A stretch of 46,678 nucleotides of DNA from assembly GCA_964577995.1 (NCBI GenBank), contig CAZOBP010000004.1, positions 1-46,678 of the forward strand, in the 5' to 3' direction. The notes under the pieces were generated by a model. It worked only from the letters and a program-made list of their open reading frames with translations, was not told the origin of the DNA and did not search any database. The stretch comes from an uncultured Anaerolineales bacterium (GTDB lineage Bacteria; Chloroflexota; Anaerolineae; UBA7937; B3-Chlor). A program made the translations under genes and the position numbers. Below are positions 2,943 to 43,952 of this stretch, in pieces; the first letter of the stretch is position 1, and the number at the start of each line of letters is the position of its first letter.

Positions 2943-3327
2943 CAACTTGCGCACAGGGATAGCGCAGCAGCCTGTCGCATACCGTCTACCCGGCGAACCT
3001 CGTACCCCAGCCAAGAGACCTACGAGCGGATGGCTTCAGGTCTCTCACAGACACGTGCAACGATCTGCACTGCGATCCATCCGCGACAATGGGGATCGGA
3101 CCGCCTCATCGCCAGACAGGTGGCCTTCACGCACGACTGTAATAACACAGTCCAGAGGTCGCCGCAGGGTGTCTTGTCGACACCCTCCAGGTTCCTCGCG
3201 CCGCCGGACGCAATCCTGCGCAGACGGTGGGTCGTATCCCAGCCCGGCCTGAGCTCTCTTGAAGGAGAAAGCGAGGGATTCCAGCGAAGGCGCTCCTATC
3301 GGTCTGCAAGATTCTCCCGCCAAGGTC

Positions 3328-3356
3328 TTGCGGAATCCCGGGAAATGTGCTATAAT
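3328..3356 (+). promoter_or_regulatory. sigma70 promoter of the nusA-infB operon
   Basis: TTGCGG-17 nt-TATAAT with extended -10 TG. Confidence 0.75.
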
Positions 3357-3381
3357 AACAAACAAGTCGTCCTCCCCTCGA

Positions 3382-3410
3382 AAAAGTGGGCATGCCCCAC
3401 TTTTCTTATT
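3382..3410 (+). terminator. rimP/nusA-leader-type attenuator hairpin
   Basis: AAAAGTGGG-CATGC-CCCACTTTT followed by CTTATT, 25 nt after the -10 box. Resembles the conserved GTGGG...CCCAC terminator-like leader of rimP-nusA-infB operons. Confidence 0.7.
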
Positions 3411-3501
3411 GTGGATGGCTGAGGGAGTCGGCAGTATCCTCAGCGGCGACGACTGGGCCAGTCTCAGTCCGGTGAACCGTGGGTCAAAGGACCAACTGGA
3501 G

Positions 3502-28608: not shown

Positions 28609-29664
28609 CTAGACTACCTCAATGCTGCCAGAACCCTCCACGACCTCTCCCACGATCCAGTACTGCTGTTCCTCGTTGGAGAATAGGTCGGCCAGCCTAT
28701 CCGCGTCATCTGGAGCCACGCTGATCAGCAAGCCACCGGATGTCTCGGAAGTGAAGAGCAGCATCTGCAACTCGTCGGATATGCCCTTGGCGAAACGGAC
28801 GTGTGCCTCGTAGGCGTCCTTGTTGCACGACGCGCGCCCGGGAAACAACCAATCGTTGGCGTACTCAGTGGCCCCTTCGAGGAACGGCAGTTCGTCGAAG
28901 GGGAAGCGCATGCCAACCTCACTCAACTCAGCCACCTCGTAGGCGTGGCCCAGCAGCGCGAAGCCGGTGATGTCGGTCACGGCGTGGACATCGACCTGCT
29001 TCATCAGTTGTGCTGGCCTGCGACTGAGTGTCAGCATCTGCTCCACCGCGCCCCTCAGGTGCGCCTCTTGAGCGACTCCTCCCTTGGCCGCCGTAGTGAT
29101 GATACCCACACCGAGGGGTTTGGTCAGGAATAGCACGTCACCCGGCTGCGCTCCGACCTTGGTGGTGACCTCCTCTGGATGCACGAATCCCACCACCGCC
29201 AGACCGTACTTCGGCTCTTCGTCCTCCAGAGTATGTCCCCCGGCGATGACGCCACCCGCCTCTGCGACCTTCTCGGCCCCTCCCCTGAGGATCTCAGCCA
29301 CTATCTCCGTGGGCATGTCCTGCGGGAAGCCGCACACATTCAAGGCCAGCGCCACCTCTCCGCCCATGGCGTATACATCGCTCATGGCGTTGGCCGCAGC
29401 AACCGCCCCGAACTCGTAGGGATCGTCCACCACAGGGGTGAAGAAATCGGTGGTGAAGATGAGAGCCAGTTCCTCACTCAACCTGTAGATAGCCGCGTCG
29501 TCGCCCGTCTCTAATCCGACCAACAGATCCGGATAGTCCTCCGGGCGGAATATCTCTGCTAGAGGGCGCACGACCTGCGCCAGGGCCTCAGGGCCCATCT
29601 TGGACGCTCAACCAGCCGCCTTGGTCAGGCTCGTCAAGCGACTCCAGTTACGTTCAGCACTCAT
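28609..29664 (-). CDS. selD: Selenide, water dikinase (selenophosphate synthetase), selenocysteine-containing
   Basis: The track ORF starts at the internal MGPE. The real ATG is 29664 (GGAGGAAAGG RBS): MSAERNWSRLTSLTKAAG-UGA-ASKMGP. UGA (29608-29610) sits at the catalytic Cys/Sec position. Motifs DDAA, TTDFFTP, ANAMSDVYAMGG, GGHT, LTKPLG, DITGFALLGH, ETSGGLL. Confidence 0.95.
29565..29596 (-). promoter_or_regulatory. SECIS element of selD
   Basis: GGGCC-CTGA-GGCCC (loop 16 nt after UGA), then GGCGCA-GGTCG-TGCGCC (loop 32 nt after UGA). The GCA-GGUC apical motif resembles the E. coli fdhF SECIS. Confidence 0.75.
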
Positions 29665-29697
29665 GCCTTTCCTCCGACGTCGTGGACCGAATCAAGG

Positions 29698-29892
29698 CTA
29701 TTCTTCTCTTGCGGCGCGATTGATGTCCTCCAGGAACGTCTCCAGGTCCAAGGAGTACTTGGCCGCGACCTCCTCGATCGTCTGGAAGAGAGCGTTACAG
29801 CAGATACACTCTCCAGCCTGTGTCTCGTAGGCCTCGAATACCGCCAGAGTGGCGGGATGCTTCTCCACCACGCTCAAGACTTCTTCACCCAT
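29698..29892 (-). CDS. Small DUF1858/ScdA_N-like protein
   Basis: VVEKHPATLAVF...CICC...TIEEVAAKYSLDLETFLEDIN pattern. Confidence 0.75.
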   Translation of the reverse strand: MGEEVLSVVEKHPATLAVFEAYETQAGECICCNALFQTIEEVAAKYSLDLETFLEDINRAAREE

Positions 29893-30235
29893 GCCTATCA
29901 CCGACCAATCCCACCTGACGCAGCCAACTCACTGTCCTCTCTAGACCTGTACGTAAGGGCGTCCATTCCAGCCCCAGTTCAACCCGGGCTCCGCTCGTCT
30001 CGAAGATGAAGGTATGCGACGCCGTCCTGGCCTCGTCCACGGAGACCAAGGGTCGTCTACGCGAGACACGGGACACCTTTTCCAGAAACCGAGCCGACGC
30101 CCTCACCAGCAGCCCCGGGAGCGTGCGAGGCCTCTTGGACAGCCCAGCAGCCTCTGCCCCCAGACTGAGTAACTCCACAAGCGAACCATTCTCGCCGACG
30201 ATGTAACCCGCCCCGCCGGTCACTAAGACGGTCAT
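29885..30235 (-). pseudogene. NAD-dependent epimerase/dehydratase with large in-frame internal deletion
   Basis: Rossmann start MTVLVTGGAGYI is joined directly to C-terminal sequence (VGENGSLVELL...ARVELGLEWTPLRTGLERTVSW). The catalytic YxxxK region is absent; only 116 aa. Confidence 0.8.
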
Positions 30236-31170
30236 GGCACCAGCGTGTAAGCACCATTCGCGGCAGTCAGGCCGTGCTTCAGAGCGGTGGCTATCTGAGG
30301 CAATTGATACGGATCCCCACCCAGACGGTTGTCGGCCGGGTACGACTGGACCACCTTCAGCGCCTCCACGTCTATGGCCACCATGTCGCCGGAGGCCAAG
30401 AGGATCCCAGGCTCCACCAGTTCCCCCTTCTCTGGCCCTCCGCTGACGAAGGCCTTGCGGCCGTCCATGACGATCAGGTCCGGCTGCCAGACCAGGTTGA
30501 TCTCCGCCGCCTTCTCCTCCAGATTGCCCATGTGCAGCGCGCGTCGTTCACCTGGGTGCACGAAGCCCACCGACAGCTTCAGGGACATAGTGAATCGGGC
30601 GTATCTGTGTGTCTTCAGACAGGGCAGGTACACCCGTTTGTCGGCCTCGTAGGCCGCTCTGGGCACGGTGACTGCCTTCAGGTACTCTCCCTCGATAGGA
30701 ACCTCCACCCACTCCGTCTCTCGCGCATCGAACCACACGAACTGTATGCCCATCTCATCCAGTAGGTCTGGAACACCCAACTTGGCGACGGTACTACTCG
30801 TCGGTCTCCAGATGCCGCCTGCGCTCTCGCCGACCACGATCGTCGCCCCGGCATCTTGCATCAGCTCCAGGACGGCGCGCAGGAAGCCCAGGTCAGTGGA
30901 GCCAGGAAACGGGTCCGGGCTATTGAAGTTGGGCTTGAGCAGCACCTTGTCTCCTGAGGAGATGGCTCTGTCCAACCCACCCAGCAGTTCCAGGCATTCT
31001 GCTAGGTCCAGCTTGACGTCTTCCGAGGACTGCACTTTGCTGACCAAGGGCTGGCCGTCCTTCAGCCACGCCGCCTTCCGGAACGCTTTGGGAGGTCTAG
31101 CCTGCAGATCGCCAGGTCTCCTGTCGGAGATAAGGTGATAAACGCCTCGCACCGCATCTATGATGGCCAT
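30232..31170 (-). CDS. DUF362 domain protein
   Basis: GDKVLLKPNFN, VVGESAGG, PCLKTH, TMSLKLSVG, LIVMDG, LASGDMVAID. Confidence 0.85.
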   Translation of the reverse strand: MAIIDAVRGVYHLISDRRPGDLQARPPKAFRKAAWLKDGQPLVSKVQSSEDVKLDLAECLELLGGLDRAISSGDKVLLKPNFNSPDPFPGSTDLGFLRAVLELMQDAGATIVVGESAGGIWRPTSSTVAKLGVPDLLDEMGIQFVWFDARETEWVEVPIEGEYLKAVTVPRAAYEADKRVYLPCLKTHRYARFTMSLKLSVGFVHPGERRALHMGNLEEKAAEINLVWQPDLIVMDGRKAFVSGGPEKGELVEPGILLASGDMVAIDVEALKVVQSYPADNRLGGDPYQLPQIATALKHGLTAANGAYTLVP

Positions 31171-31401
31171 AGTTGGTAGCTCCCTGAGATCAGAATCTCG
31201 GCACTGCAGAAGCGATGAGCATCCTAGTCACCCCGAGCAATCTCAGTCAATTGATCTGTCCCTTCCATTGTCAGAGTCCTTGGCATCGTTTCAATCGTGG
31301 CCACCATCGGTATCGATGGACACAGCCGACAGATCCACTTTGGGCCGACAGCTCGACTAACGCCTCCCCAGGACAGGCCAGGGCAGAAAGGTGATCGGTC
31401 A

Positions 31402-32277
31402 TCAGTGGTCAGTGGTTCGCTGGAGAGCCCCCAGGATGCAGGGTTGACCCTCCCGTACTACAAGCACCGGCCGGTCCAGGGCCTCCATCACTCCTGCGGC
31501 GACATCGGGCACATAGTATCGGCGCAGGGTATTGGAGCTGTGCTTCGAGCCCATCACCACCAGGTCGAAATCCCCCTCGTGCGCTTCGGCGAGGATCTCG
31601 CGCACCACCGTGCCGCGTCGCACATGCAAAGTCGGTTCAACCCCCTGGGTTCGCGCTTGCTCCAGCAAAGAGCGTAGATGTCGAGCTTGGGGAGTGTCCG
31701 TTGTCAACAAGTTCTTCCAATGGACCTCCATTTGATCGGCGGTAGGATAGTTGTAACCCACGGGCTCCACTACGTACAGAAAGGTTAGCCCGGCGCCAGT
31801 ACGCTGTGCCACATCCAGCGCGCAGTACTCCGCACTCTCCGCGTGTTCGAGTGCACCGGTGGCAACCAGAATGCGCGCCAACTGGCGATGCGCTGTTGGC
31901 GCATAGATGAAGGGTGCGCGCAAATCCGCCATCATCCGCCGAAGCGAATGGCCTCGGAGCCAGCGCTTCCACCACGGGCGCCCCAGCGGCCCCATAACCA
32001 CCAAATGCTGGTCTGGTACGGCCAATGCGGCAACTACCTTGCGCGCCCGGCCTGCGCGAAGCTGTACGGTGTACTCAATCCCCGCCGCCTCCAACTGAGC
32101 CCGAGTTGCGCTCAATGCCTGCTCCACAACCGCACCCTGAGCTGGCTTCTCCACAACGCCCAACAGCGTCACCGGTAGCTGCAACAGCCCGGCCAGCCAC
32201 ACGCCGTAGTCCAGTGCGTGCAGACCTTTCGCCGCGCCATTCGTCCAGATCAATAGACTGTGCTCCTGAGCGTTCAT
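31402..32277 (-). CDS. Tandem universal stress protein
   Basis: Two USP domains; ILVATG, DLVVMGSKH, ALDRPVLVVR. Confidence 0.88.
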   Translation of the reverse strand: MNAQEHSLLIWTNGAAKGLHALDYGVWLAGLLQLPVTLLGVVEKPAQGAVVEQALSATRAQLEAAGIEYTVQLRAGRARKVVAALAVPDQHLVVMGPLGRPWWKRWLRGHSLRRMMADLRAPFIYAPTAHRQLARILVATGALEHAESAEYCALDVAQRTGAGLTFLYVVEPVGYNYPTADQMEVHWKNLLTTDTPQARHLRSLLEQARTQGVEPTLHVRRGTVVREILAEAHEGDFDLVVMGSKHSSNTLRRYYVPDVAAGVMEALDRPVLVVREGQPCILGALQRTTDH

Positions 32278-32798
32278 CGCAACAACACCAGACCAGCCAG
32301 GCCAGCCACCACCAGCACAACGGGCGAGGGAACTTTGAGTAGGTAGGCGATCAGGCTCGCGGCGGCGATTCCTATGCTGACTCTCATCTGCCCACCGCCT
32401 TCACCCCTAAACACCCGCCAGGCCACCAACACCATCAGGACGGCGACCGCGGGCGCCAGACCCTTGACAAAGTTCCCCACCCAAGCCTCGCCGCGTAGAC
32501 GGTTCAAGACAGACACAATCCCCAGCATCAAGACGGTGGGTGGCAGAATGGATCCGAACAGCGCCGCCACCGCGCCCGGCACGCCCCCAGCGGCATAGCC
32601 TACAAACATTGCCAGTTGGAGGGCATCACTGCCGGGCAAGACACTGGAGAACCCCACCGCTTCCACAAACTCGCTCTCGGAGAGCAGGGTGCCGACTGCT
32701 TCGTCGTACAACAACCCCACCGAAGCCGGCCCAGACGTAGTGAGCAAGTTGATCTTGATGAAAGTCAAGAACAGACTCAGCAGCTCGGAGAAGCTCAT
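32274..32798 (-). CDS. chrA: Short-chain chromate ion transporter (CHR) subunit
   Basis: TFIKINLLTTSG, EFVEAVGFSSVLPGS, FVGY...GVPGA, LPPTVL, GLAPAVAVL. Confidence 0.82.
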   Translation of the reverse strand: MSFSELLSLFLTFIKINLLTTSGPASVGLLYDEAVGTLLSESEFVEAVGFSSVLPGSDALQLAMFVGYAAGGVPGAVAALFGSILPPTVLMLGIVSVLNRLRGEAWVGNFVKGLAPAVAVLMVLVAWRVFRGEGGGQMRVSIGIAAASLIAYLLKVPSPVVLVVAGLAGLVLLR

Positions 32799-32927
32799 TG
32801 TACATCTCCCTTATAGGTAGCAATCTGTGCGCAAGAATCGTCCCTGACTGATGCCTGCCCAAGAGGCACAAATGGTAACCGAACATGCACTCTCTTACCG
32901 ATCGGCAGACAACACGGCAACCGCCAA

Positions 32928-32956
32928 AGGCTAAGACAGAACCTCAAATCTGTCAA
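32928..32956 (-). promoter_or_regulatory. sigma70 promoter of chrA-USP with overlapping inverted-repeat operator candidate
   Basis: TTGACA-17 nt-TAGCCT; GACAGA-N8-TCTGTC inverted repeat at 32935-32954. Confidence 0.55.
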
Positions 32957-33403
32957 ATACAGACGGGTCCGCGCGGGATCAGGAGCGAGCTCTCCAGCGC
33001 CGACATCGGAAAACGGGAATCCGGGCAGGGCTCCAACATGCATCGCGAGACCTGACATTTGTGCGCGCCTGGATGACAAGTCACCTGTGACGACCGCCTC
33101 CACCAGTAGCCGGCTCAAGGATCTGGCTAGCACCTCGCGGTCTTTCCCCTTGAGCTTGACATCGCAGCCGAAATCGTTCACGTCGTCAAAGGGATAGTAC
33201 TTGCGTTCCCTTGAATAGCAGAGCTGCCTTACGAGCAAACTTGCCCGACATTGATCAGTAGCCAGTGCTTGCTCTTGTCCCACCCACAGTTTAGACTTCC
33301 TGTGCCCAGGGGACTGGTGGCGATCTCCCGGCACCGGCCGCAGTAGGTTCGACGCTTTCATCAGCGCATCAGTAAGGGCAGGTAGTCTAGAATCGTGTAG
33401 GGG

Positions 33404-33784
33404 TCATGACTCGTCGGGGCGCAAGGGGCTCTCCTTGTCCCAGATGGCGTTCAAAGTGCGGGCCAGCCGACCGCCGATCAGTCCAGTGGTCCCAAATGCC
33501 AGAGGAAACCAGATGGGAACACCGAGCAGACTGGGGTTCGCGTACTCCCACACCCCAAACTGCACGAACACAGCTTCGGCCAACGAGCCTAGTACCGCGA
33601 TGACCAAGAAGAAGCAGATGTCTAGACGAGTGTGCCAGCGAGTCAGCGCAACGCCGCACTCCACAGCCATGAGGACGAAGAGAAGGAGATTGTGCGTCCA
33701 CAGCAGCGCGACGCAGGCCACCAATACCACAAAGGCCGCCATCTCTATGGCTAGCTCGATCCACAGCGATCGCCGTTGCCCCAT
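33404..33784 (-). CDS. Small polytopic membrane protein (DUF2878-like)
   Basis: ATG 33784 with AGGAG RBS; four hydrophobic segments; AEAVFVQFGVWEY...GVPIWFP motif. Confidence 0.65.
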   Translation of the reverse strand: MGQRRSLWIELAIEMAAFVVLVACVALLWTHNLLLFVLMAVECGVALTRWHTRLDICFFLVIAVLGSLAEAVFVQFGVWEYANPSLLGVPIWFPLAFGTTGLIGGRLARTLNAIWDKESPLRPDES

Positions 33785-33926
33785 GACTACCGACTCCTCA
33801 TACACTCCTTTCTCAGGTATCGACCGAACGCCAACGATTCTAGCAGAGGGCATAGCTCCGAGCAATTGGGCAGCGGACCCTGGGCACGCTACAGACGGTA
33901 CGCCCTGTTGATGGAGCAGCCGAGTC

Positions 33927-34838
33927 ATGGCCAGTAGACTGCGTGCGTGGATCGCCCTCTCGCGCCCACCGTTCCACTCGGTGGGTGTGCTGCCCTTTAT
34001 CCTCGGGTCGGTCCTGGCCTGGCGGCTGACAGGCACCCTCCGCTGGGATATCTTGGCCTGGGGCACGGTGGGAGTGGTGCTGGTCATGCTCGCCACGTAC
34101 TATGCAGGAGAGTACTGGGACCACCGTGAGGACTCCCTCTCGACCGCTCTGGGCCCCAGTCGCTTCGCCGGTGGCTCCCGCGTCTTGCAGGCGGGCCTTC
34201 TGCCTCACGATTCGGCCCTGCGGGCCTCGGTGGTGGCCCTCCTGCTGGCCCTCGTTGTCGCCGTCATCCTCCAACTGGGCTACGGCACGGGACCGCTGAC
34301 CCTTCCCTTCTGTTCCCTGGGGCTGCTTGGCGGGTTCTTCTATTCGACTCGCCCCATCCGGTGGGCGGCCACGGGCGTGGGCGAGCTGTGGATCGGCTTC
34401 TGCTATGGCTGGCTGCCCGTAGCGGTTGGCTGCTATCTTCAGGTGGGACATATCGCTTCTCTCGTCCATTGGCTGGCTATCCCCGTCGGTCTGACCATCG
34501 TCAACGTCATCCTGCTCAATGAGTATCCGGACTACCCCGCCGACTCGGCGACTGGCAAGACCAACCTCGTGGTCCGCTTGGGCCCGCGCAGGGCCTCCCT
34601 GCTCTACGCCATCGTGAGTGTTGGGAGTTGGCTGGCTATGCTTGTGTCCGTGTTTCGCGGTGTGCCTGTACAGGCTTTCTGGTTCTACCTTCCCGTGCTA
34701 GCCCTGTCGCTGGTCCTGGTCGTACTCATGCTGCGAGAACGCTGGCGAGATAGAGAGACCCTGGAGAAGCTGTGTGGGGCTAACCTCCTGGTCAACCTGG
34801 GCACCACGGCAGCATACATCCTGGCTCTCTTGAGTTGA
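33927..34838 (+). CDS. UbiA-family prenyltransferase, MenA-like
   Basis: SRPPF start, Asp-rich EYWDH..D, FFYS..P, GELWIG, NEYPDYPADSATGKTNLVVRLG; multiple TM helices. Confidence 0.85.
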   Translation: MASRLRAWIALSRPPFHSVGVLPFILGSVLAWRLTGTLRWDILAWGTVGVVLVMLATYYAGEYWDHREDSLSTALGPSRFAGGSRVLQAGLLPHDSALRASVVALLLALVVAVILQLGYGTGPLTLPFCSLGLLGGFFYSTRPIRWAATGVGELWIGFCYGWLPVAVGCYLQVGHIASLVHWLAIPVGLTIVNVILLNEYPDYPADSATGKTNLVVRLGPRRASLLYAIVSVGSWLAMLVSVFRGVPVQAFWFYLPVLALSLVLVVLMLRERWRDRETLEKLCGANLLVNLGTTAAYILALLS

Positions 34839-36109
34839 TGTCTATGGAACACTGGATGCCCGAGTGGGGCGAACGACCTCAGCGCAAGGTGCGGCGTTAC
34901 TGGTCCCCCCCCACCCTCATCCTTCGGCAAATCGTGAGCGCCATCTACATCGGAGCGCTGGCTCGTTGGAGAGAGCTGCCGAGATGGATCCGCACCTATG
35001 GCCTCAAGTGCCTCCCCGGCGCCGCGGGATCCCTGGGCATGGGTTGCATCGGCTTCCCTGCCCACCCCGTCTGGGAGATGACCACAGCCTGCAATCTCCA
35101 CTGCATCCACTGCCATGCCTCCGGGGGCAAGCGCGCCCCCGATGAACTCACCACCGAGGAGGCCAAGCGTCTTATCGATCAACTGTCTCAGGTCAGCGAA
35201 TTCCGCATGATGGCCTATACCGGCGGCGAGCCGCTGGTTCGTCCCGACCTGTTCGAGCTCCTGGCCTACTCTCAGGCGTTGGGCTTCACCAACACCATGG
35301 CTACCAACGCTACCCTCATCGACGACGAGGTGGCCGAGCGCCTGCGGGACTACGGCCTGGTCATCGCCGCGGTGAGCCTCGATGGCTTCGACGCCGAGAC
35401 CCACGACTACGTCCGGGGCCAGCCCGGAACCTTCGAAGCCACCCTCAAGGGCATCCGGGCCCTGAGGCGGGCCGGCATTCTGCTCCATATCAACATCACG
35501 GCCATGGAATACAACCTGGATCAACTGGAACCCCTGATGGGTCTCGTGGACGAGCTGGGCACCGGCATCGTGCTGATGTATCAACTGGTGCCTGTGGGAA
35601 GAGGCCGCGCCATCGAAGAAGCGGCGTTGGACCTGGACGCCAACGAGCGCCTCATCCGCTTCATGGCCGAAGCCCAGCGCACAACCCACGCCATCATGGA
35701 GCCGGTGGCAGGCCCACAGTACTGGCCTTTCCTGCTCCAGCGGTCCGGTATTCACAGCGGCCCCCTCCTCCGTCTGGGCGAGACCGTCTTTCACGGCTGC
35801 TCCGCTGGCCGAGGGTTCGTCTACGTCAAACCCAACGGCGACGTCTGGCCGTGTCCCTTCATCGAGACCAACTGCGGCAACGTGCGTGAGACGCCGTTCT
35901 CGACCATCTGGAGCAACTCGCCCATCCTCCAGGACCTGAGAAGGAGGGAGGAGCTCCTCCAGGGACGCTGCGGCGAGTGCGAGTACAGACGTCTATGTGG
36001 AGGCTGCCGGGGACGCGCCTGGGCCACCAGCGGTGACTACCTGGCCGAGGACCCATCCTGCTTCATCCACACCCCAAGAATCGACGGTAGCTCCGACGCC
36101 CAGCCATAA
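34838..36109 (+). CDS. Radical SAM/SPASM domain protein (NirJ/AhbC/AhbD-like)
   Basis: CNLHCIHC, TGGEPL, SLDG; SPASM GCSAGRG...GDVWPCPF...CGECEYRRLCGGCRGRA. ATG overlaps the menA-like stop (TGATG). Confidence 0.9.
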   Translation: MSMEHWMPEWGERPQRKVRRYWSPPTLILRQIVSAIYIGALARWRELPRWIRTYGLKCLPGAAGSLGMGCIGFPAHPVWEMTTACNLHCIHCHASGGKRAPDELTTEEAKRLIDQLSQVSEFRMMAYTGGEPLVRPDLFELLAYSQALGFTNTMATNATLIDDEVAERLRDYGLVIAAVSLDGFDAETHDYVRGQPGTFEATLKGIRALRRAGILLHINITAMEYNLDQLEPLMGLVDELGTGIVLMYQLVPVGRGRAIEEAALDLDANERLIRFMAEAQRTTHAIMEPVAGPQYWPFLLQRSGIHSGPLLRLGETVFHGCSAGRGFVYVKPNGDVWPCPFIETNCGNVRETPFSTIWSNSPILQDLRRREELLQGRCGECEYRRLCGGCRGRAWATSGDYLAEDPSCFIHTPRIDGSSDAQP

Positions 36110-36223
36110 GCCTCCAGTCCCTCCCCAGACTGCACTCAGAATGATGCCTCTCGACCGAGGCCCGGACGACCAGGCTGGGCGAGCGACAAGGACACCCGCC
36201 CAGCCCTGCCGCAGTCCCCATGC

Positions 36224-36442
36224 CTACTTCTTGATCATCACGCGGAACTCGTCACCCACCTCCTGGATCTCGACGGTGCATTCCATGTTCTCCACCGCTC
36301 GCCTGACGTTGTCGCGAGAAGTAACCGTGTCCACCAGTACCTCCACGCTGCCACCGCTCTCCAGCTTCTTGACAGCGTCTCGACTCATAATCACCGGCTG
36401 TGGGCACGATAGCCCACGTGCATCAACCAGTTGATCGCTCAT
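36224..36442 (-). CDS. TusA/SirA-family sulfur(selenium) carrier
   Basis: VDARGLSCPQPVI motif; 72 aa. Confidence 0.9.
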   Translation of the reverse strand: MSDQLVDARGLSCPQPVIMSRDAVKKLESGGSVEVLVDTVTSRDNVRRAVENMECTVEIQEVGDEFRVMIKK

Positions 36443-36467
36443 AACAGACTCCCTCCCAGAGAAGCAG

Positions 36468-37544
36468 TCAGTCCATCCGTTGTCTCATGGTCAGACCGAA
36501 GAGGACGCACACGGCGAGCCCCACGATCACAGCGGCGGGACCCCAAGGGCCTGGGCCAGTCGTCGAGCTAGCCAGTCCGAAGTTGTGGGCAAAGCCCGCT
36601 CCCACGATCATGCCGATCACGAATATGGCAGCATCTCCATCGCCCTCGCCGGACATGAAGATCTGCCGGCCGGGGCAGCCGCCGGCCAGGGCAAAGGCCA
36701 GACCCGCCAGCACCATCCCCCCGAAGTTCCACAGATGGTTAGTGTGAGCCACAGGCTGTCCCTCGAAACCGAGGTTGAACTGCCCCAGCAGCAGGTTAGT
36801 CACCAGAGCTGCCCCCGCGAAGGACAGGATGCCCCAGAACAGGTGCGGGTCGCGAATGAGCATCAGGTCTCTAAAAGCGCCCATGGTGCAGAAACGAGTG
36901 CGTTGGGCCAGGAAGCCGATGCCCATGCCCACGGCCAGGGAGATCACCCACGGAGCGTACATCACGCCCGGCCCTTCCGCACTGAAGAAGATCGGCCCGC
37001 CCTCTGTGAAGCTGAACTCCAGGACGCGCAGTACTAGTAGTAAGATCATGATCACCGGCAGGATCCATCCCACAGCCGTGTAGGTCCTGTAGCTGCGCCC
37101 CAGGCTGTAGCCCATACGCATGAACACCACACCTATGCCGATGCCTGCGGCCAGGCCCAAGAGGCCAAGCGCGGCGTTCAGGTCACCGGCAGCCAGACGC
37201 AGCAACGCCCTCCAGGGACAGCCCAGGAACACCAGCGCCCCGATCATGGCGAAGAAACCCAGCACGAAGCGCACGATAGGAGCGGATCCCACCCTGGGCT
37301 TGAACTCCTTGAAAGCGTAGGCTGCGATGAGGGCCCCGAAGACGAAACCCATAATCTCGGGCCTCAGGTACTGCACCACCGCGGCTCGGTGAAGGCCCAA
37401 TGCTCCAGCGATGTCCCGCTCGAAGCAGGCCACGCAGATACCCATGTTGCCCGGGTTGCCCCATTTCTGGAGCAGCGGGGCGAATACGCCCACGAACAGC
37501 CCGGCACTCACTATCCCCCAAGGGGAAGACCAAAACCTCTTCAT
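36468..37544 (-). CDS. yedE: YedE-family putative selenium transporter membrane protein
   Basis: GNPGNMGICVACFERDIAG, FLGCPWR, QRTRFCTMG, LAGGCPGRQ; selenium-metabolism neighbourhood. Confidence 0.9.
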   Translation of the reverse strand: MKRFWSSPWGIVSAGLFVGVFAPLLQKWGNPGNMGICVACFERDIAGALGLHRAAVVQYLRPEIMGFVFGALIAAYAFKEFKPRVGSAPIVRFVLGFFAMIGALVFLGCPWRALLRLAAGDLNAALGLLGLAAGIGIGVVFMRMGYSLGRSYRTYTAVGWILPVIMILLLVLRVLEFSFTEGGPIFFSAEGPGVMYAPWVISLAVGMGIGFLAQRTRFCTMGAFRDLMLIRDPHLFWGILSFAGAALVTNLLLGQFNLGFEGQPVAHTNHLWNFGGMVLAGLAFALAGGCPGRQIFMSGEGDGDAAIFVIGMIVGAGFAHNFGLASSTTGPGPWGPAAVIVGLAVCVLFGLTMRQRMD

Positions 37545-37658
37545 CCTTTCTCCCTTTCCACTTCATCATGATCGGGTAGGTTCAGCAGAAAACGCACATT
37601 GTGTCAGTACTTCCCTTGCATGATCGTGGCCTCCCTTCCTCGAGGAATCTCTCCACAT

Positions 37659-37701
37659 ACAAAATCCTCACCACCCAGCCGCCAGATCAGATGGTGAGGA
37701 C
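37659..37701 (-). terminator. Intrinsic terminator candidate (attenuator) upstream of yedE
   Basis: GTCCTCACCA...TGGTGAGGAT stem (9 Watson-Crick bp plus G-U pairs), then TTTTGTAT. Confidence 0.65.
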
Positions 37702-37733
37702 TCCTCGAGGATACGAGGTAATCCAGGGACACA

Positions 37734-37886
37734 CTAGTAGTGGTCCTCCACCATCCACCGCGGCTGGGGAACGTAGACCCGGACCGATGTGAGTCTTAAG
37801 ACCTTAAGACGCCGCACGGCGTCCGGTCAAGTACCTCAACCGGTTCGCTGCCACAGATACCGCGAAACAGCACGAATGTCCATCAT
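37734..37886 (-). CDS. Putative leader peptide B with tandem in-frame UGA (Sec) codons: MMDIRAVSRYLWQRTG-U-GT-U-PDAVRRLKVLRLTSVRVYVPQPRWMVEDHY
   Basis: GAGGTG SD 6 nt before ATG, right after the DUF3343 stop; UGA at 37836-38 and 37827-29; SECIS-like hairpins downstream; TAG at 37734-36. Confidence 0.6.
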
Positions 37887-37896
37887 CCGATACACC

Positions 37897-38124
37897 TCAC
37901 AACGCACAGATCTCTTCGAACTCGACGCGCGACGCGTCGAGAACCGCTCGCAGGTTCTCCACATCCGCAGACTCGAACCTCAGACATACGCCGCAATCGG
38001 AGCTTAGATGCCTGGGCACCGGAATGAGCTTGACCTTCAGGTCTGCCTTCTTCGCCAGCTTCTCAGCCCGTATCGCGCCACTAGTGGAGTGGAATAGGAC
38101 GACGCTATGTTCCGAACTCGCCAC
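37897..38124 (-). CDS. DUF3343 domain protein
   Basis: VLFHSTSGAIRAEK...LIPVPRHLSSDCGVCLRF. Confidence 0.88.
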   Translation of the reverse strand: MASSEHSVVLFHSTSGAIRAEKLAKKADLKVKLIPVPRHLSSDCGVCLRFESADVENLRAVLDASRVEFEEICAL

Positions 38125-38134
38125 CGTTTCCCTC

Positions 38135-38729
38135 CTAGGGAGCGACTACGCTACCGGCTGCCAGCAACGCCTCGGCGATAGAGTACATGTTGGAAACCTG
38201 TCCCACGACTATCTTGTCCTTGAGTCCGAAATGACCAAGACAGGTACCACAGGCCAGTATCTCCACGTCCCTCTGCTCCAGAGCTTGCAGATCCTCCAGG
38301 ACAAGAGAACCCTCAACCGTTAGCTTCACACCGGCGGTGAGAAAGATGATGGTGTCGGGCAGCGGTCCACTTCGTGGAGCGTGTGGACAAAGGAGCGTAT
38401 CAAGATGCCGCCCAGTTCGTCGTCCCCGCGTCCCATGCCGTCACTGGGGACAAGCACCACGGTCAGTCCTGCCAATCCGCCGATCGTCCCGGCCCGGACC
38501 GTGCTCTTCTCCGATGGTTCGCCCACCTTGCTCATGTGTAGATCTGAGCCATCCTCCTTCTCTTCTACCTCCAAAGCGAAGCCTTCTCTGGCCGCCATGC
38601 ACGACACGTTGCTCTTGGCCGTCGCGTTGTCCACGATCGTCGTCACCTGATCGGTCTCGGCCATGGCCTTCCTGCTCTGGATCACCGGCTGAGGGCACGC
38701 CAGCCCCCACAATCCACTACGTCGCTCAC
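38135..38729 (-). pseudogene. yedF: Selenium-metabolism YedF (SirA-like + DsrE-like), with two 1-nt deletions
   Basis: Restored sequence MSDVVDC(R)GLACPQPVI...GRGDDELGGILIRSF...HEVD(P)LPDTIIFLTAGVKLTVEGS...ACGTCLGHF...VSNMYSI. Frameshifts at about 38708 and about 38364. Confidence 0.85.
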
Positions 38730-38781
38730 CAGTGCCTTCTGTCCGAGGGGCATTCCATGCCACGATCGGCCCCTCTCCCGT

Positions 38782-39936
38782 TCATCTCCCAACTGCGATC
38801 TCGCGCACCGCACTCACAGCGGCGTCTACCTCCTCCGCTGTGTTGAAGTAACTGAGTCCGAATCGCACCGTGCCCACCGGGAAGGTGCCGACGGTCCGAT
38901 GGGCGGCCGGCGCGCAGTGCAGTCCCACACGACTCAAAACCCCGTATCCTTCGTCGAGTTTGAGGCCCACCTCCGAGGGTTCCAGCCCCTCCACGCCGAA
39001 GGAAACCGTAGCTGTCTGCAACTCTGCGTCATGAGAACCATAGACCATCACGCCATGAATCTCCATCAATCCGGCTAGGAGTCTCCGCGTGAGATCCACC
39101 TCGTGTGCACGGATGGCCTCGACGCCCTGCTGCAAGACGAATTCCACACCCGCCCTGAGACCCGCCAGCCCCACGGTGTTCGGAGTCCCACTCTCGCACC
39201 GGTCTGGCAGGAATGCTGGTTGCTCCTCCCTCTCAGACCGGCTGCCTGTGCCCCCCCGCTTCACCGGCTCTATCTCATGCGCCTCTACGCGCTCTCCGAT
39301 GCAAAGCCCTCCTGTGCCCTGGGGGCCAAACAGCGCCTTATGGCCCGTGGAGGCCAGCAGATCTATGTTCATGGCCTCCATGTCGAGGGGGTACGCGCCC
39401 GCAGTCTGGGCGGCATCGACCAGCAGCAGCGTGTCATGCCGCCTGGCGATCTCCCCCACCTCCGCCACAGGCAGCACGGTGCCCACGACATTGGAGGCGT
39501 GGTTGAGGACGATCATCTTGGTCTCGGGCCTCAAGGCCGACTCTACGTCAGCAGGGTCAAGAAACCCCTCGGAGGAACAAGGCACGACGTGGATCTCCAC
39601 TATACCGGCTTCCTCCAATGCACGAAGCGGTCTCATGACCGAGTTGTGCTCCATGCTGCTGGTGATCACGTGATCGCCCGGCCGAAGTAGCCCGTGCAGG
39701 GCCAGGTTGAGGGCCTCGGTCGCGTTCGCCCCAAACACGATGCGGAGCGGATTCGCGACGTTGAAGAGGCGCGCCAGGACCTCGCGCGTCTCATACACGA
39801 TCCGGCCAGCCTCAATGGACATGCGGTGTGCAGAACGCCCCGGGTTTGCCCCGACCTCCGCCATGAAAAAGGACATAGCGTCGATGACAGCGGCGGGCTT
39901 CGGCCAGGAAGTAGCCGCATTGTCGAAGTAGATCAT
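38782..39936 (-). CDS. Aminotransferase class V, cysteine desulfurase/selenocysteine lyase-like protein of selenium clusters
   Basis: IYFDNAATSWPKP, NATEALN, MEHNSV, NHASNV, DAAQTAG, STGHKALFGPQGTG, ESGTPN, RVGLHCAP. Confidence 0.92.
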   Translation of the reverse strand: MIYFDNAATSWPKPAAVIDAMSFFMAEVGANPGRSAHRMSIEAGRIVYETREVLARLFNVANPLRIVFGANATEALNLALHGLLRPGDHVITSSMEHNSVMRPLRALEEAGIVEIHVVPCSSEGFLDPADVESALRPETKMIVLNHASNVVGTVLPVAEVGEIARRHDTLLLVDAAQTAGAYPLDMEAMNIDLLASTGHKALFGPQGTGGLCIGERVEAHEIEPVKRGGTGSRSEREEQPAFLPDRCESGTPNTVGLAGLRAGVEFVLQQGVEAIRAHEVDLTRRLLAGLMEIHGVMVYGSHDAELQTATVSFGVEGLEPSEVGLKLDEGYGVLSRVGLHCAPAAHRTVGTFPVGTVRFGLSYFNTAEEVDAAVSAVREIAVGR

Positions 39937-39958
39937 TTGTAACACCTCGTGGATGACG

Positions 39959-39980
39959 AAAAAGAGGGATTGATCCCTTC
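39959..39980 (-). terminator. Intrinsic terminator candidate (attenuator) just upstream of the desulfurase RBS
   Basis: G(A)AGGGA-TCAA-TCCCTC followed by TTTTT. The stem is short. Confidence 0.5.
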
Positions 39981-40053
39981 ATCTCCTACGATTGCGATCC
40001 AGCGTCGCCAGCAGAGCCCGCAACCCTAGTAGAGGAGGAACCAGGAGAGGAAT

Positions 40054-40218
40054 CTAGAGGAAACTCAACCCAGGTCGGCCTCCACTCGAGGAAGCAGGTC
40101 TCGGCGAACTGAGAAGGATATCAAACGAAGCCTGATGCATCCCGTGCATCGCGCCAAGGGCTTGGCTTCAGCCCATTCAGGTGAATGGCATCGAGCGACA
40201 CTTGTTCCAGCGCGTCAA
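40054..40218 (-). CDS. Putative leader peptide A with tandem in-frame UGA (Sec) codons: MTRWNKCRSMPFT-U-MG-U-SQALGAMHGMHQASFDILLSSPRPASSSGGRPGLSFL
   Basis: Perfect SD AAGGAGGTGA (40225-34) before TTG 40218; UGA at 40177-79 and 40168-70; SECIS-like hairpins; TAG at 40054-56. Confidence 0.55.
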
Positions 40219-40281
40219 CCCTGCTCACCTCCTTCCCCGACCTGAGTCTAACGCCCTCGGATGGGGCGGATTCCGGCTCTC

Positions 40282-40310
40282 ATTCTACGGCATTCTCACA
40301 GCGATGTCAA
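40282..40310 (-). promoter_or_regulatory. sigma70 promoter of the selenium operon
   Basis: TTGACA-17 nt-TAGAAT, about 345 nt upstream of the first large CDS. Confidence 0.8.
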
Positions 40311-40373
40311 TCCGAGGGGTGTTTGCGCCAAGACATCGCTGCCAGGTGGTGAAGAGGACCGCTCCCGGCGTCC

Positions 40374-41219
40374 TCATTTTCTCTCCACCGCGAGTTGTCC
40401 GACCGGCACCCTCCGGGAGTGTCGTGCGCTCTCACCGGGCTCATCCTGAAGCAATCTCCCCGCGCGCATCAGCCCACGTAGCGACACGCCCAGGATGTCC
40501 TCCACCAGTGCCGGGACCTCTTCTTTCTCCTCAAGCGGCACGTCTTCCTGTAGTCTCTCCACGAGTTCCAGGTAGTGTCCCAGTGCTGCCAGCCGGTCGC
40601 CCAGTGCAAGCAAAGAGTCCATGATCCCTCTATGTCCTGACTCGCAGTAGTAGTCCTGCGCCACGGCAAGTCTGTACAAGTCCAGAGCTTCCTCCCACAG
40701 GCCACGTCCAGCACGCATCCGTGCTATGGCCAGCACCGTACGCGTGTAGAGACGCCTCAGCCGCTCTCGGGCCGGTTCACACCATTCCGAGACACAGCCT
40801 TCGAGGTAGTCACCCTCATACAGCCCTATGGCTCTCTCGTACAGTTCCTCTGCTTCGCTATCTCGGGCGCTCTGTCCGGCCTGGATCACCAGGGACTCGA
40901 ATTGCGCGACATCGTAGGCCCACGGAGCACCGTCTCCAATCCGGTAGACATCATCCTCCCAGAGAACGGCCCCCCGTCCGACAGCCCGCCGACACCTGTA
41001 GAGAGTCGAGTGAAACAGTCCATCCCTACTCGCCTCATCACAGTCGGGGAACAGTCTCTCGCTAATGCGCTCCTTCGTCAGACCATCTGGATGATTCAAG
41101 AGAAGGAAGAAGAGTTCCGAAGCCCGTCTCGAGCCCCACTCCTTGCGGGTGACCTCGCGCGACCCGACCAACACGCGAGGATGACCGAGCGCCTTGGCCA
41201 CATGTGTCGCCGACTGCAT
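40374..41219 (-). CDS. Winged-helix + BTAD (SARP-like) transcriptional regulator
   Basis: ATG 41219 with AGGGAGAGG RBS; ELFFLLLNHPDGLTKERISERLFP...FHSTLYRCRRAVG; LYEGDYLEG, EWCEPARERL, ESGHRGIM. The longer track N-terminus is probably not translated. Confidence 0.82.
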   Translation of the reverse strand: MQSATHVAKALGHPRVLVGSREVTRKEWGSRRASELFFLLLNHPDGLTKERISERLFPDCDEASRDGLFHSTLYRCRRAVGRGAVLWEDDVYRIGDGAPWAYDVAQFESLVIQAGQSARDSEAEELYERAIGLYEGDYLEGCVSEWCEPARERLRRLYTRTVLAIARMRAGRGLWEEALDLYRLAVAQDYYCESGHRGIMDSLLALGDRLAALGHYLELVERLQEDVPLEEKEEVPALVEDILGVSLRGLMRAGRLLQDEPGESARHSRRVPVGQLAVERK

Positions 41220-42132: not shown

Positions 42133-43260
42133 TCACGCCTCCGCGTCGCTGTCTTTGAGACCCAGAGCCTCGTAGATCTCGGCTTCTTCCGCCCGCCGTT
42201 TGATTCGCATGCGGCCCAGAGATCTGGCCTCAACCGAGTCCTTGACCTGGTCGTAGGTGGCGCGGCTAAGAAGAATCTGCTGCTCCTTGGCCTGCTCTTG
42301 CAGGCGGAAGGCCACATTGACGGTATCGCCGATGGCGGTGTAGTTCATCAGTGCCTGGCTGCCCACGTTTCCAACCACCGCCTCGCCGGTGTTGATGCCG
42401 AAACCGAAGTGCAGGGAGGGCTCCTGATCCTGGTGGCTGAGGCTCTCTCTTACGGCAAACGCGGTCCTCACCGCGCGCAAGGCGTGGTCAGGCTGATCGA
42501 GCGGGGAATTGTAGAGCGCCATCACGGCATCGCCCATAAACTTGTCCAGCACGCCCCCATTGGCGAAGATGCACTCCGTGGCTTGGCTCAGATACCCGTT
42601 CACCACCTCTATCAGGCGCTCAGGCGGCATCTTCTCTGCCAGCGCCGTGAACCCTCGTAGATCTGCGAAGAGGATGGTTACCTCTCGCCGCTCACCCCCC
42701 AGCTTGGCCCGTGAAGGATCGTCGATCAAGTACTGAGCCACCTGCGGCGGGAGGTAGCGCTCGAACAGTTCCCGCGTTTGCTCCTCCAGCTCCCGTATGC
42801 GCCGGTAGCTTGTCTCCAGCTCGCCGTATCTCACCTCAAGCTCGTCGTGGGCCTCAGAGAGTTCCCGCTGGAGCCGCTCCCTTTCTCGACGTAGATGACA
42901 GCGCTCCAGCACCCTCTCCAACCTGATGAACGCCTCCTGGTAGTCCAGGGGTTTGATCAAATAGTCATCCGCGCCGGCCGTGAGCGCCTTGACCGCGATC
43001 TCTTCCGAGCCGAACGCGGTCACCATCACAATGCCTATCAAGGGCTGCTGCTCCCTGATCTTCCTCAAGGTGTCCATGCCATCCAGTTTAGGCATCATTA
43101 TGTCAAGAAGAACCAGGTCCGGCACGTGCTCCTTGACGGCCTGCAACGCCTCACGACCATCTCCAGCCGTGATCACGTCATAGCCCACCCTCTCCAGAAG
43201 CTGCGCGGTCACCTCGCGAAAGGCATCATTATCATCTGCCAAGACTATGCGCCCGGTCAT
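42133..43260 (-). CDS. Response regulator receiver + coiled coil + class III adenylate cyclase
   Basis: LADDN, LLDIMMP, VTAFG, DDYLIKP; cyclase motifs ILFADLRGFT, DKFMGDAVMA, GINTG, YTAIGDTVNVAFRL (Lys/Asp pair typical of ATP specificity). Confidence 0.92.
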   Translation of the reverse strand: MTGRIVLADDNDAFREVTAQLLERVGYDVITAGDGREALQAVKEHVPDLVLLDIMMPKLDGMDTLRKIREQQPLIGIVMVTAFGSEEIAVKALTAGADDYLIKPLDYQEAFIRLERVLERCHLRRERERLQRELSEAHDELEVRYGELETSYRRIRELEEQTRELFERYLPPQVAQYLIDDPSRAKLGGERREVTILFADLRGFTALAEKMPPERLIEVVNGYLSQATECIFANGGVLDKFMGDAVMALYNSPLDQPDHALRAVRTAFAVRESLSHQDQEPSLHFGFGINTGEAVVGNVGSQALMNYTAIGDTVNVAFRLQEQAKEQQILLSRATYDQVKDSVEARSLGRMRIKRRAEEAEIYEALGLKDSDAEA

Positions 43261-43326
43261 CGATCCCTTCCCATCCCCGTCCAACCGAGAACGCAGAGTG
43301 CTGAAGGAAGAACGCTATCCACGACG

Positions 43327-43941
43327 CTATAGATAGCCTAGAGCCTTCAGCCTGTCCTCCAGTATCTGCTCCTCCTCCTCGCTGTAGACCTCGTCCCCGC
43401 CCGCGGAGGTCCGCGGTACGTAGCCCAACACCTCCAACTTGGTCAAGATCTTCCCGACGCTCTCCTCGAGACTCTCAGTATCAGTGTGCACCACGACTTC
43501 CGCATTTAGCGGTTCCTCGTAGGGATCTGAGACCCCCGTGAAGCTCTTGATCTCTCCGGCGAGCGCCTTCTTGTACAGCCCCTTGACATCGCGCTCAATC
43601 AGTACCTCGAGAGGACAGCTACAATAGACCTCGACGAAGCGCCCGATGTCCTCGCGGATATAGTCTCGCACTGCTCGATAAGGCGAGATGGCAGAACCGA
43701 TGGCCGCGACGCCATTCCGAGTGAGGAGCTTGCACACGAAGCCGATCCGTTTGATGTTGATGTCCCGGTCTTCCTTGCTGAAACCCAACCCCTTGCTCAG
43801 ATTGGTGCGGACCACGTCTCCATCCAGCACCTCCACTTTCAGACCCCTGTCCCGGAGAATGCTCTCCACAGCACCGGCAAGCGTTGTCTTGCCTGCACCG
43901 GACATTCCCGTGAACCATAGGGTGAACCCTTGCTGTTCCAT
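43327..43941 (-). CDS. cysC: Adenylyl-sulfate kinase with C-terminal acidic/RLxxLGY tail
   Basis: [50 protein letters not shown]. Confidence 0.95.
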
Positions 43942-43952
43942 GAGATACTGTT

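Follow-up and report, generated by a model that had tools for sequence, protein, structure and literature searches.

The DNA analysed here, hereafter the window, is a stretch of 46,678 nucleotides (nt) with 61% GC from an uncultured Anaerolineales bacterium (GenBank assembly GCA_964577995.1, contig CAZOBP010000004.1). It carries a selenium locus, all features of which are on the minus strand, that runs from 40.3 kb to 28.6 kb and contains, in this order, a promoter, a short open reading frame (ORF) called leader A, a sclA-like gene, yedF, a DUF3343 gene, a second short ORF called leader B, yedE, a tusA-like gene, unrelated genes and selD. Both leaders contain two in-frame UGA codons (UGA1 and UGA2) followed by hairpins that resemble bacterial selenocysteine (Sec) insertion sequences (SECIS), and they are probably leader-peptide attenuators that sense selenocysteine. 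The window was compared with sequences of relatives, which are labelled with L-numbers (L001, L165, etc.); the closest relatives of its YedE (95%) are encoded by metagenome-assembled genomes of Anaerolineales/Anaerolineae.

The sclA-like gene (38782..39945) belongs to the cysteine desulfurase/selenocysteine lyase family (TIGR01977, E=2e-143); its score against the SclA model NF040779 is 403 bits, under the cut-off of 525 bits. The yedF gene (38135..38718), encoding a selenium metabolism protein with TusA and DsrE-like parts, is a partial match to TIGR03527. It is followed by the gene of a small DUF3343/Se_S_carrier protein (37897..38124; PF11823 was assigned to the L161 orthologue), the stop codon of which falls within the Shine-Dalgarno (SD) region of leader B. 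Downstream of leader B, yedE (36468..37544) encodes a putative selenium transporter (TIGR04112, E=1.7e-144). Lastly, selD (28609..29664) encodes a selenophosphate synthetase (TIGR00476, E=5e-110, 367 bits for a cut-off of 125) and is itself a selenoprotein gene: its in-frame TGA (29610-29608) is at the catalytic Cys/Sec position, in the motif AAG-U-ASK (U being selenocysteine; translation ...TKAAG-U-ASKMGPEALAQVVRPL). This UGA is kept in all relatives, more than 40 selD genes having been examined.

Leader A (40054..40218) has an SD GGAGG, a TTG start codon at 40218, UGAs at 40179-40177 and 40170-40168 and a TAG stop codon at 40056-40054. Its 54 codons, located 108 nt upstream of sclA, read (M)TRWNKCRSMPFT-U-MG-U-SQALGAMHGMHQ... 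if the UGAs are translated. The leader is preceded by a sigma-70-like promoter (TTGACA-17-TAGAAT, 40282..40310, 11/12 matches) that is the sole such site in 36300-40450. Leader B (37734..37886) starts with ATG at 37886, has its UGAs at 37838-37836 and 37829-37827 and ends with TAG at 37736-37734. It has 50 codons, is located 190 nt upstream of yedE and would encode MMDIRAVSRYLWQRTG-U-GT-U-PDAVRRLKVLRL...QPRWMVEDHY*.

This anatomy is conserved. Homologues of leader A with the motif FT-U-xG-U were found in L001, L002/L081, L161/162, L163, L164 and L086/87. All seven sequences have UGA-N6-UGA with variable codons between the UGAs, and the stretch from UGA2 to TAG is without indels in six of the seven lineages. 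Leader B was found in eight distinct sequences (YedE 84-95% identical), in which the SD, the ATG, the frame and the position of the stop codon are kept. Seven of them have UGA-N6-UGA. The exception, with GGA-N6-UGA in frame, is L084/L085, where the sense codon GGA stands in place of the first UGA, the frame is intact and the hairpin closer to the UGAs shows a G-G mismatch and a loop lacking GU. The alignment of leader B has no gap between UGA2 and the stop codon and several gaps past it. Furthermore, a 1-nt deletion in leader A of L086 moves the downstream ORF to another frame and leaves the distal RNA hairpin unchanged, which argues for a constraint on the RNA rather than on the peptide. Judged from these alignments, conservation is at the level of the RNA and of the ORF geometry, not of the peptide.

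These observations bear on the idea that the ORFs encode functional small selenoproteins, whose U-x-x-U would be a redox or selenium-binding motif and which would be co-expressed with the selenium-trafficking genes. Such a motif resembles CxxC/UxxU redox motifs, and the ORFs, of about 50-55 codons, are located inside selenium operons. However, the peptide is poorly conserved, as illustrated by the frame of L086 past the UGAs, GxxU, UxU or a single U replaces the motif in relatives, and the C-terminus of leader B corresponds to an RNA-pairing strand with compensatory changes. Small selenoproteins are therefore a very improbable explanation.

In leader B, the last codons contain the 5' strand of an antiterminator (GGAUGGUGGAGGAC, 37743..37756), which ends 6 nt before the TAG. 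This strand pairs with GUCCUCACCAUC (37701-37690), 95.8% of the alignment cells being paired, with two compensatory pairs. The same GUCCUCACCAUC is the first strand of an intrinsic terminator (37661..37701), in which it is followed by a 14-nt loop, GGGUGGUGAGGAU (37676-37664) and UUUU; in this helix, 97.9% of the cells are paired, also with two compensatory pairs. The two helices are mutually exclusive, and covariation is three-way: two columns of the strand that they share covary with each of its partners. When the partners are slid by 1-3 columns, pairing falls to 29-60% (29-51% for the antiterminator). In constrained folds computed in silico, the pair probability of the terminator was 0.00 for the free RNA or with a ribosome at UGA1 or UGA2; a ribosome at the leader stop codon raised it to 1.00. 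The hairpin region that follows the UGAs pairs with neither terminator nor antiterminator. As far as alignment and simulated folding indicate, leader B is a classical attenuator that would decide on the passage of the ribosome past the UGAs.

The hairpins themselves were examined by a mechanical scan, in which distance is the number of nt that separate the first UGA from the first base of the loop. In selD, the loop of the proximal hairpin GGGCC-CUGA-GGCCC (29583..29596, 5 bp) starts at 16 nt and that of the distal hairpin GGCGCA-GGUCG-UGCGCC (29565..29581, 6 bp) at 32 nt. In leader B, the proximal hairpin GACGCC-GUGC-GGCGUC (37808..37823, 7 bp), a candidate SECIS for UGA1, has its loop at 18 nt and the SECIS-like distal hairpin GUCUUAA-GGUC-UUAAGAC (37793..37810, 7 bp) at 32 nt. 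In leader A, the corresponding loops of GCCAA-GCCC-UUGGC (40153..40166, 5 bp) and of the SECIS-like GAUGCA-CGGGA-UGCAUC (40134..40150, 6 bp) are at 15 and 32 nt. In both leaders, the distal loop lies 23 nt past UGA2, inside the 16-37 nt range. Every figure of the two-hairpin geometry that a sequence-only reading of the window had reported for these three sites was thus reproduced. It had also made its case depend on 32-nt hairpins not being common after ordinary UGA stop codons, and this proved correct: hairpins of at least 5 bp with a loop of 4-5 nt starting exactly at 32 nt follow 22 of the 1368 TGA triplets that the two strands of the window contain (1.6%) and one of the 23 TGA stop codons of likely genes. 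Adding a proximal hairpin at 15-18 nt leaves four of the 1368 TGAs (0.3%), three of which are those of selD, leader A and leader B, and none of the 23 gene stops.

The unusual feature is this common register, not the hairpins as such. Since 29% of all TGAs of the window have a hairpin somewhere at 16-37 nt, a range criterion of the bSECISearch type is not discriminating here by itself. Moreover, the folding-energy z-scores of 64-nt segments at the three UGA sites (-0.6, -1.6 and -0.5) are not significant in a genome with 61% GC. The proximal and distal hairpins of leader B have 3 nt in common, and the minimum free energy fold of the isolated 64-mer contains the proximal one only. The match to selD does not count as two fully independent ones, as leaders A and B may be old paralogues. 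When the window was examined for additional selenoprotein controls, a single UGA-extended ORF (2593-5319) looked promising, and it was rejected because it is NusA with a spurious upstream extension.

In the bacterial SECIS model, the apical loop is located 16-37 nt from the UGA and has a G in its first positions. The leader hairpins agree with the distance criterion, with distal loops at 32 nt from UGA1 and 23 nt from UGA2 and proximal loops at 15-18 nt, likewise in the relatives. A G starts the distal loops of selD (GGUCG) and leader B (GGUC) and the proximal loop of leader B (GUGC); it is at position 2 in the distal loop of leader A (CGGGA), and the proximal loops of leader A (GCCC) and selD (CUGA) fit poorly. 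Conservation is high in the distal hairpins. In leader B, more than 21 columns are 100% invariant in the eight sequences for a mean column identity of 77%, and in leader A the stem and CGGG are invariant in the seven sequences, the last base of the loop being A or C. The distal hairpin of leader B (37793-37810) is also a tandem direct repeat of GUCUUAAG with the palindrome CUUAAG, so that several alternative pairing registers are possible.

In selD, the distal stem is invariant in more than 12 Anaerolineae genes (67-95% amino acid identity), only the loop being variable (GGUCG, GGUGC or GGUCU), and it forms an island of nucleotide identity amid diverged flanking codons. The proximal hairpin shows a register shift in L086/L161 and is gone in L003 and L167, which indicates a weak constraint. 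Since the distal stem is kept where the proximal one decays, the distal hairpin, at 32-33 nt, is likely the selD SECIS. These data, together with the TIGR00476 assignment and the U at the catalytic position, uphold the view that SelD is a bona fide selenoprotein and a reasonable internal control. In other phyla, the SECIS-like hairpin of selD has a loop CGGGU or similar at 16-20 nt, for instance CGGGU at 16 nt in deltaproteobacteria.

Comparison with related leaders points to other distances for the leader UGAs. In L165 and L167, the selD hairpin is also at 32-33 nt, but the yedE leaders contain only one early UGA, followed by one hairpin with a GGUG or GGUU loop at 18 nt. This hairpin aligns with the proximal hairpin of leader B in the same frame and with the same spacing (GGCGCC-GGUU-GGCGUC versus GACGCC-GUGC-GGCGUC), and the stems of L165 and L167 differ from each other. 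In L168, the sclA leader has the SD region and PFT motif of leader A, a single UGA and, 23 nt past it, a homologue of the distal hairpin of leader A (CGAUGCA-CGUGC-UGCGUCG). Homologous hairpins thus differ in their stems between lineages, both among L165, L167 and leader B and between L168 and leader A. L165 also carries (2926-3621) a single peroxiredoxin gene (AhpC-TSA) that had been split into two ORFs by gene calling; its peroxidatic position is encoded by an in-frame UGA (FTFV-U-PTE), which is followed at 17 nt by a hairpin with the same GGUC loop as the distal hairpin of leader B. This true selenoprotein provided a second control besides SelD. The distal loops GGUC, GGUCG and CGGGA/C resemble those of true SECIS, i.e. 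GGUC of this peroxiredoxin and CGGGU of deltaproteobacterial selD. In L165, the yedE leader immediately follows the peroxiredoxin gene, and the same locus encodes SelB next to selD.

Taken together, the distances in the yedE leaders of L165 and L167 (18 nt), the sclA leader of L168 (23 nt), the peroxiredoxin gene (17 nt) and selD (32-33 nt) suggest that the Sec machinery of the clade works at 17-18, 23 and 32-33 nt. Given these sequences, the leaders probably do not work at a distance of 32 nt. This goes against the proposal that it is the SECIS spacing of this organism, all the more since leader A of L086 has 31 and 22 nt. The further suggestion that one SECIS serves both UGAs is not supported as it was put, since the single-UGA relatives have homologous hairpins at 18 or 23 nt. 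An arrangement in which UGA1 would use the proximal hairpin (15-18 nt) and UGA2 the distal one (23 nt) fits at least as well and is favoured by the comparative data; a single SECIS for both codons is less supported. With one hairpin per UGA, the common distance of 32 nt would largely be the sum of 9 and 23. The weakened proximal hairpin of L084/85, which lack UGA1, fits this arrangement.

Concerning leader A, the stem of the proximal hairpin shows a compensatory change in L086 (AA/UU to GG/CC), and this hairpin competes with an outer helix, UGAAGCC/GGCUUCG, that begins at UGA2. The outer helix encloses both hairpins. The SD region GGAGGUGAG is predicted to pair with UUCACCU just before UGA1 (40171-40179 with 40216-40224), and this SD helix (columns 18-24 with 63-69 of alignment A3) and the outer helix are both invariant in the seven sequences. 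Further downstream, the RNAalifold consensus contains a long hairpin (39999..40112) with the leader stop codon at its apex and about eight compensatory pairs; its 5' arm is inside the ORF and its pyrimidine-rich 3' arm downstream of the ORF. Purine-rich and pyrimidine-rich segments follow, then the sclA SD. A hairpin AGGGAUCAAUCCCU followed by U5 is located just upstream of this SD (39958..39978). In leader A, no mutually exclusive antiterminator/terminator pair was found, in contrast to leader B, and an output through a chain of pairings between purine-rich and pyrimidine-rich segments was rejected, as the thermodynamic model gives it no support. In L168 (4920-5150), the sclA SD is sequestered by a perfect 14-nt complement (CCUCCUUGGGUUUG with CAAACCCAAGGAGG) that starts just past the last in-frame UGA of the leader. 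This arrangement is a hint that elements of the leader A type act on translation initiation.

The pairing of the leader A SD with the sequence just before UGA1 is also in line with the hairpins being operators for SelB, whose binding with Sec-tRNA would alter folding or block ribosomes without UGA decoding. There is a precedent: according to PMC13449736, which summarises Thanbichler and Bock 2002, the selAB 5' untranslated region of Escherichia coli contains a SECIS-like element through which SelB autoregulates its operon, selAB being repressed when the element is bound by SelB-GTP-Sec-tRNA. As in the present case, a SECIS-like hairpin in an mRNA leader couples selenium-pathway genes to SelB-Sec-tRNA, and the loops of the leaders are SECIS-like. 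However, the E. coli element is described as untranslated, lacking a UGA and blocking translation initiation, whereas the present hairpins lie past in-frame UGAs in candidate translated ORFs and the output of leader B would be a choice between terminator and antiterminator. In every lineage, UGAs at SECIS distance are conserved in frame within ORFs with an SD and a start codon, and the leader B switch is set by the position of the ribosome, not by the hairpin region. Operators for SelB are hence an improbable explanation.

We rather favour selenocysteine-sensing attenuation, which would operate as follows. Each leader would present to the ribosome an SD and a start codon, about 13-16 sense codons, UGA-x-x-UGA, SECIS-like hairpins and about 30-37 further codons. 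When SelB-GTP-Sec-tRNA(Sec) is at hand, it would be recruited by the hairpins, both UGAs would be read as Sec and the ribosome would reach the leader stop codon. When selenium is scarce, the ribosome would stall at the UGAs or be released there by release factor 2 (RF2). In leader B, a ribosome at the stop codon would cover the antiterminator strand, the terminator (37701-37661) would form and yedE would be off; without a ribosome at this position, the antiterminator would form and yedE would be transcribed. The net outcome, uptake switched on by low selenium, would be a sensible logic for a selenium importer. Leader A would place the same sensor before sclA-yedF-DUF3343, with an output stage made of the long hairpin described above and of the purine- and pyrimidine-rich segments near the sclA SD. 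Plausibly, the hairpins could also act as pause sites for RNA polymerase, synchronising transcription with decoding.

That the leader UGAs are decoded as Sec is the most likely reading of these data. The sequence-only reading had reached the same conclusion from the 32-nt match; the conclusion stands, but its support comes mainly from elsewhere. The leaders precede selenium genes (yedE, sclA-like, yedF and DUF3343, with selD nearby), relatives keep the UGA-N6-UGA, the frame and the downstream hairpins, and leader B ends on an antiterminator strand that covaries in three ways with the terminator.

Several observations weigh against selenocysteine-sensing attenuation. Of 37 genes here, 23 end in TGA, the most frequent stop codon, so that its presence alone is weak evidence, and the open frame after UGA2 is not striking, as the other two frames have only 1-3 stop codons over the same stretch. 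Within the clade, the distal hairpins are invariant with no compensatory pair, the proximal hairpin of leader A having one. In constrained folds of leader A, the downstream hairpin and the SD region were the same for all of the several ribosome positions tried, and the U-tract of its hairpin AGGGAUCAAUCCCU is not conserved in relatives, which makes a terminator doubtful there. The switch logic of leader B was rejected for the leaders of L165 and L167, whose terminator formed in all states simulated. The window contains no selA, selB or selC/tRNA-Sec, and no tRNA at all was found in it; the traces of the Sec machinery are the Sec-containing selD of the window and the SelB that adjoins selD in L165. 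Lastly, two successive recodings limit termination to at most e-squared for an insertion efficiency e, and strong repression would need Sec insertion far more efficient than that of E. coli.

Some of these points would be accounted for if UGA1 were the plain stop codon of a very short ORF (16 or 13 codons) with UGA2 as a back-up, the hairpins being pause or structural parts of an attenuator for another signal such as translation capacity or RF2. The frequency of TGA stops, the lack of hairpin covariation within the clade and the statistically uncompelling downstream frame are all in line with this, as is the GGA variant of L084, which still has a stop three codons on. However, plain stops leave unexplained why the leaders occur solely before selenium genes and why the frame is free of indels and keeps its length and the position of its stop codon relative to the antiterminator. 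Hairpins with GGUC or GGGU loops at SECIS distances also recur in unrelated leader lineages. Moreover, if the ORF always ended at UGA1, the antiterminator of leader B would be permanent and nothing would be regulated. Plain stop codons are therefore unlikely, if less so than SelB operators.

Selenocysteine-sensing attenuation would share several features with the attenuators of the trpL/hisL/leuL/pheL type. Leader B has an SD-preceded short ORF, tandem regulatory codons and an antiterminator or terminator chosen by the ribosome, and the regulated genes supply the sensed molecule. It would differ in that the regulatory codons are UGA stops to be recoded via SECIS and SelB, in that the sensed species would be SelB-Sec-tRNA(Sec) instead of an aminoacyl-tRNA delivered by EF-Tu, and in that failure at the UGAs may be termination by RF2, not stalling alone. 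Furthermore, the leaders control genes for uptake and trafficking, not biosynthesis. Like the bacterial SECIS of the E. coli fdhF type, the leader hairpins are located past an in-frame UGA, with loops GGUC, GGUCG or CGGGA at 15-32 nt; in contrast to it, they are in non-enzymatic ORFs with two UGAs 9 nt apart and two hairpins, and 32 nt lies towards the upper end of the known distances. In Treponema primitia, selenium controls the transcription of fdhF(Sec) via translation coupling (PMC3892789). In this case too, selenium is read at a Sec UGA/SECIS and passed to transcription elongation, but the site is within the selenoprotein gene, the mechanism is a loss of coupling and low selenium means off (PMC3892789). 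The present leaders would be dedicated ORFs with defined alternative RNA helices that act on other genes, leader B being on at low selenium. In mycobacteria, polycysteine leaderless short ORFs are cysteine-responsive attenuators according to bioRxiv 10.1101/834739; these upstream ORFs are likewise short, rich in codons for a chalcogen amino acid and regulate downstream genes, whereas they are described there with ordinary Cys codons and no recoding element. We found no description of leaders or attenuators with Sec codons in the literature, the coverage of which was incomplete, so that this is absence of evidence only. Rfam gave nothing at gathering thresholds over the whole window; at E<=10 over 29400-40300, there were four chance-level matches only (E >= 1.1), located elsewhere, and no SECIS or leader family.

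Other leaders with in-frame UGAs were found before yedE in Chloroflexota, namely in L003, in L019 (loop AGGGU at 16 nt, then a terminator), in L050 (CGGGU at 16 nt) and in L063, which has UGA-x-UGA with CGGGU 16 nt from the second UGA. A second, AT-richer group upstream of yedE (L093, L115 and L145/L146) has a single UGA (M..FS.R-U-..KRPRLGLRF...) and two hairpins, the distal loop being GGU or CGGGU at 27-28 nt. In this group, the ORF contains a purine-rich tract and the yedE SD has a complementary pyrimidine-rich tract, which suggests sequestration of the SD and thus translational rather than transcriptional attenuation. Independent UGA leaders with GGU/GGGU-loop hairpins 16-28 nt downstream thus precede yedE or sclA in L003, L019, L050, L063, L165, L167, L168 and L093/L115/L145, with differing output stages. 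Among 139 distinct yedE upstream regions, a loose pattern scan gave 14 forward matches versus 5 in the reverse complement, a modest enrichment; most deltaproteobacterial yedE loci have no UGA leader. In L167 (5540-5801), the frame of the yedE leader passes two UGAs and no other stop codon before it reaches the yedE ATG, which is in frame with it; this is probably coincidental, as the frame of the L165 leader ends at TAA TAA.

With slightly better than even confidence, we propose that these leaders form a hitherto undescribed class of cis-regulators, selenocysteine attenuators, in which recoding of the UGAs by SelB and SECIS would let the ribosome itself report the supply of Sec-tRNA(Sec). They would act on selenium uptake (yedE) and on trafficking (sclA-yedF-DUF3343), both in Anaerolineae and in one or more further lineages. 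Members of the class would share a sensor, i.e. a UGA and a GGU/GGGU-loop hairpin 16-28 nt downstream, and differ in their outputs (terminator versus antiterminator, or SD sequestration). As part of the same proposal, tandem UGAs with one hairpin each would sharpen the response.

To our knowledge, little has been learnt about how bacteria sense their selenium status. The means described or proposed so far are regulators of the LysR_Se/HrsM type and the autoregulation by SelB in E. coli. If selenocysteine-sensing attenuation is confirmed, a leader ORF would be a direct read-out of the availability of Sec-tRNA(Sec)/SelB and the first attenuator based on a stop codon and a recoding signal instead of sense codons. 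The leaders would also be natural cases of two close Sec codons with short compact SECIS hairpins, useful for the engineering of selenoprotein expression. In addition, they would be functional evidence that YedE, SclA-like, YedF and DUF3343 form one selenium-homeostasis regulon and would provide a simple sequence signature for annotating leaders that gene callers miss or truncate at the UGA.

Some Chloroflexota yedE loci have a divergent regulator gene instead of a leader. In L050 and L070, a divergent ORF that ends near the yedE promoter resembles the N-terminal part of a LysR-type regulator; in L050 it coexists with a UGA leader, while L070 has the LysR-like gene alone. This regulator may belong to the LysR_Se subfamily that was proposed in PMC5322559.

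The yedF gene of the window has two 1-nt deletions, near 38709 and 38366, when aligned with L001, L161 and L162, and its N-terminal, middle and C-terminal parts are spread over three frames. It is either a pseudogene or the result of an assembly error at short G/C runs; yedF of L002 has a frame change too. Upstream of the selenium locus (42133-46544, minus strand) are genes for a fused ATP-sulfurylase/phosphodiesterase, an APS kinase and a response-regulator-guanylate-cyclase. APS kinase and response-regulator genes also precede the selenium locus in L163 and L164, and this neighbourhood may be relevant to the activation of selenate or sulfate.

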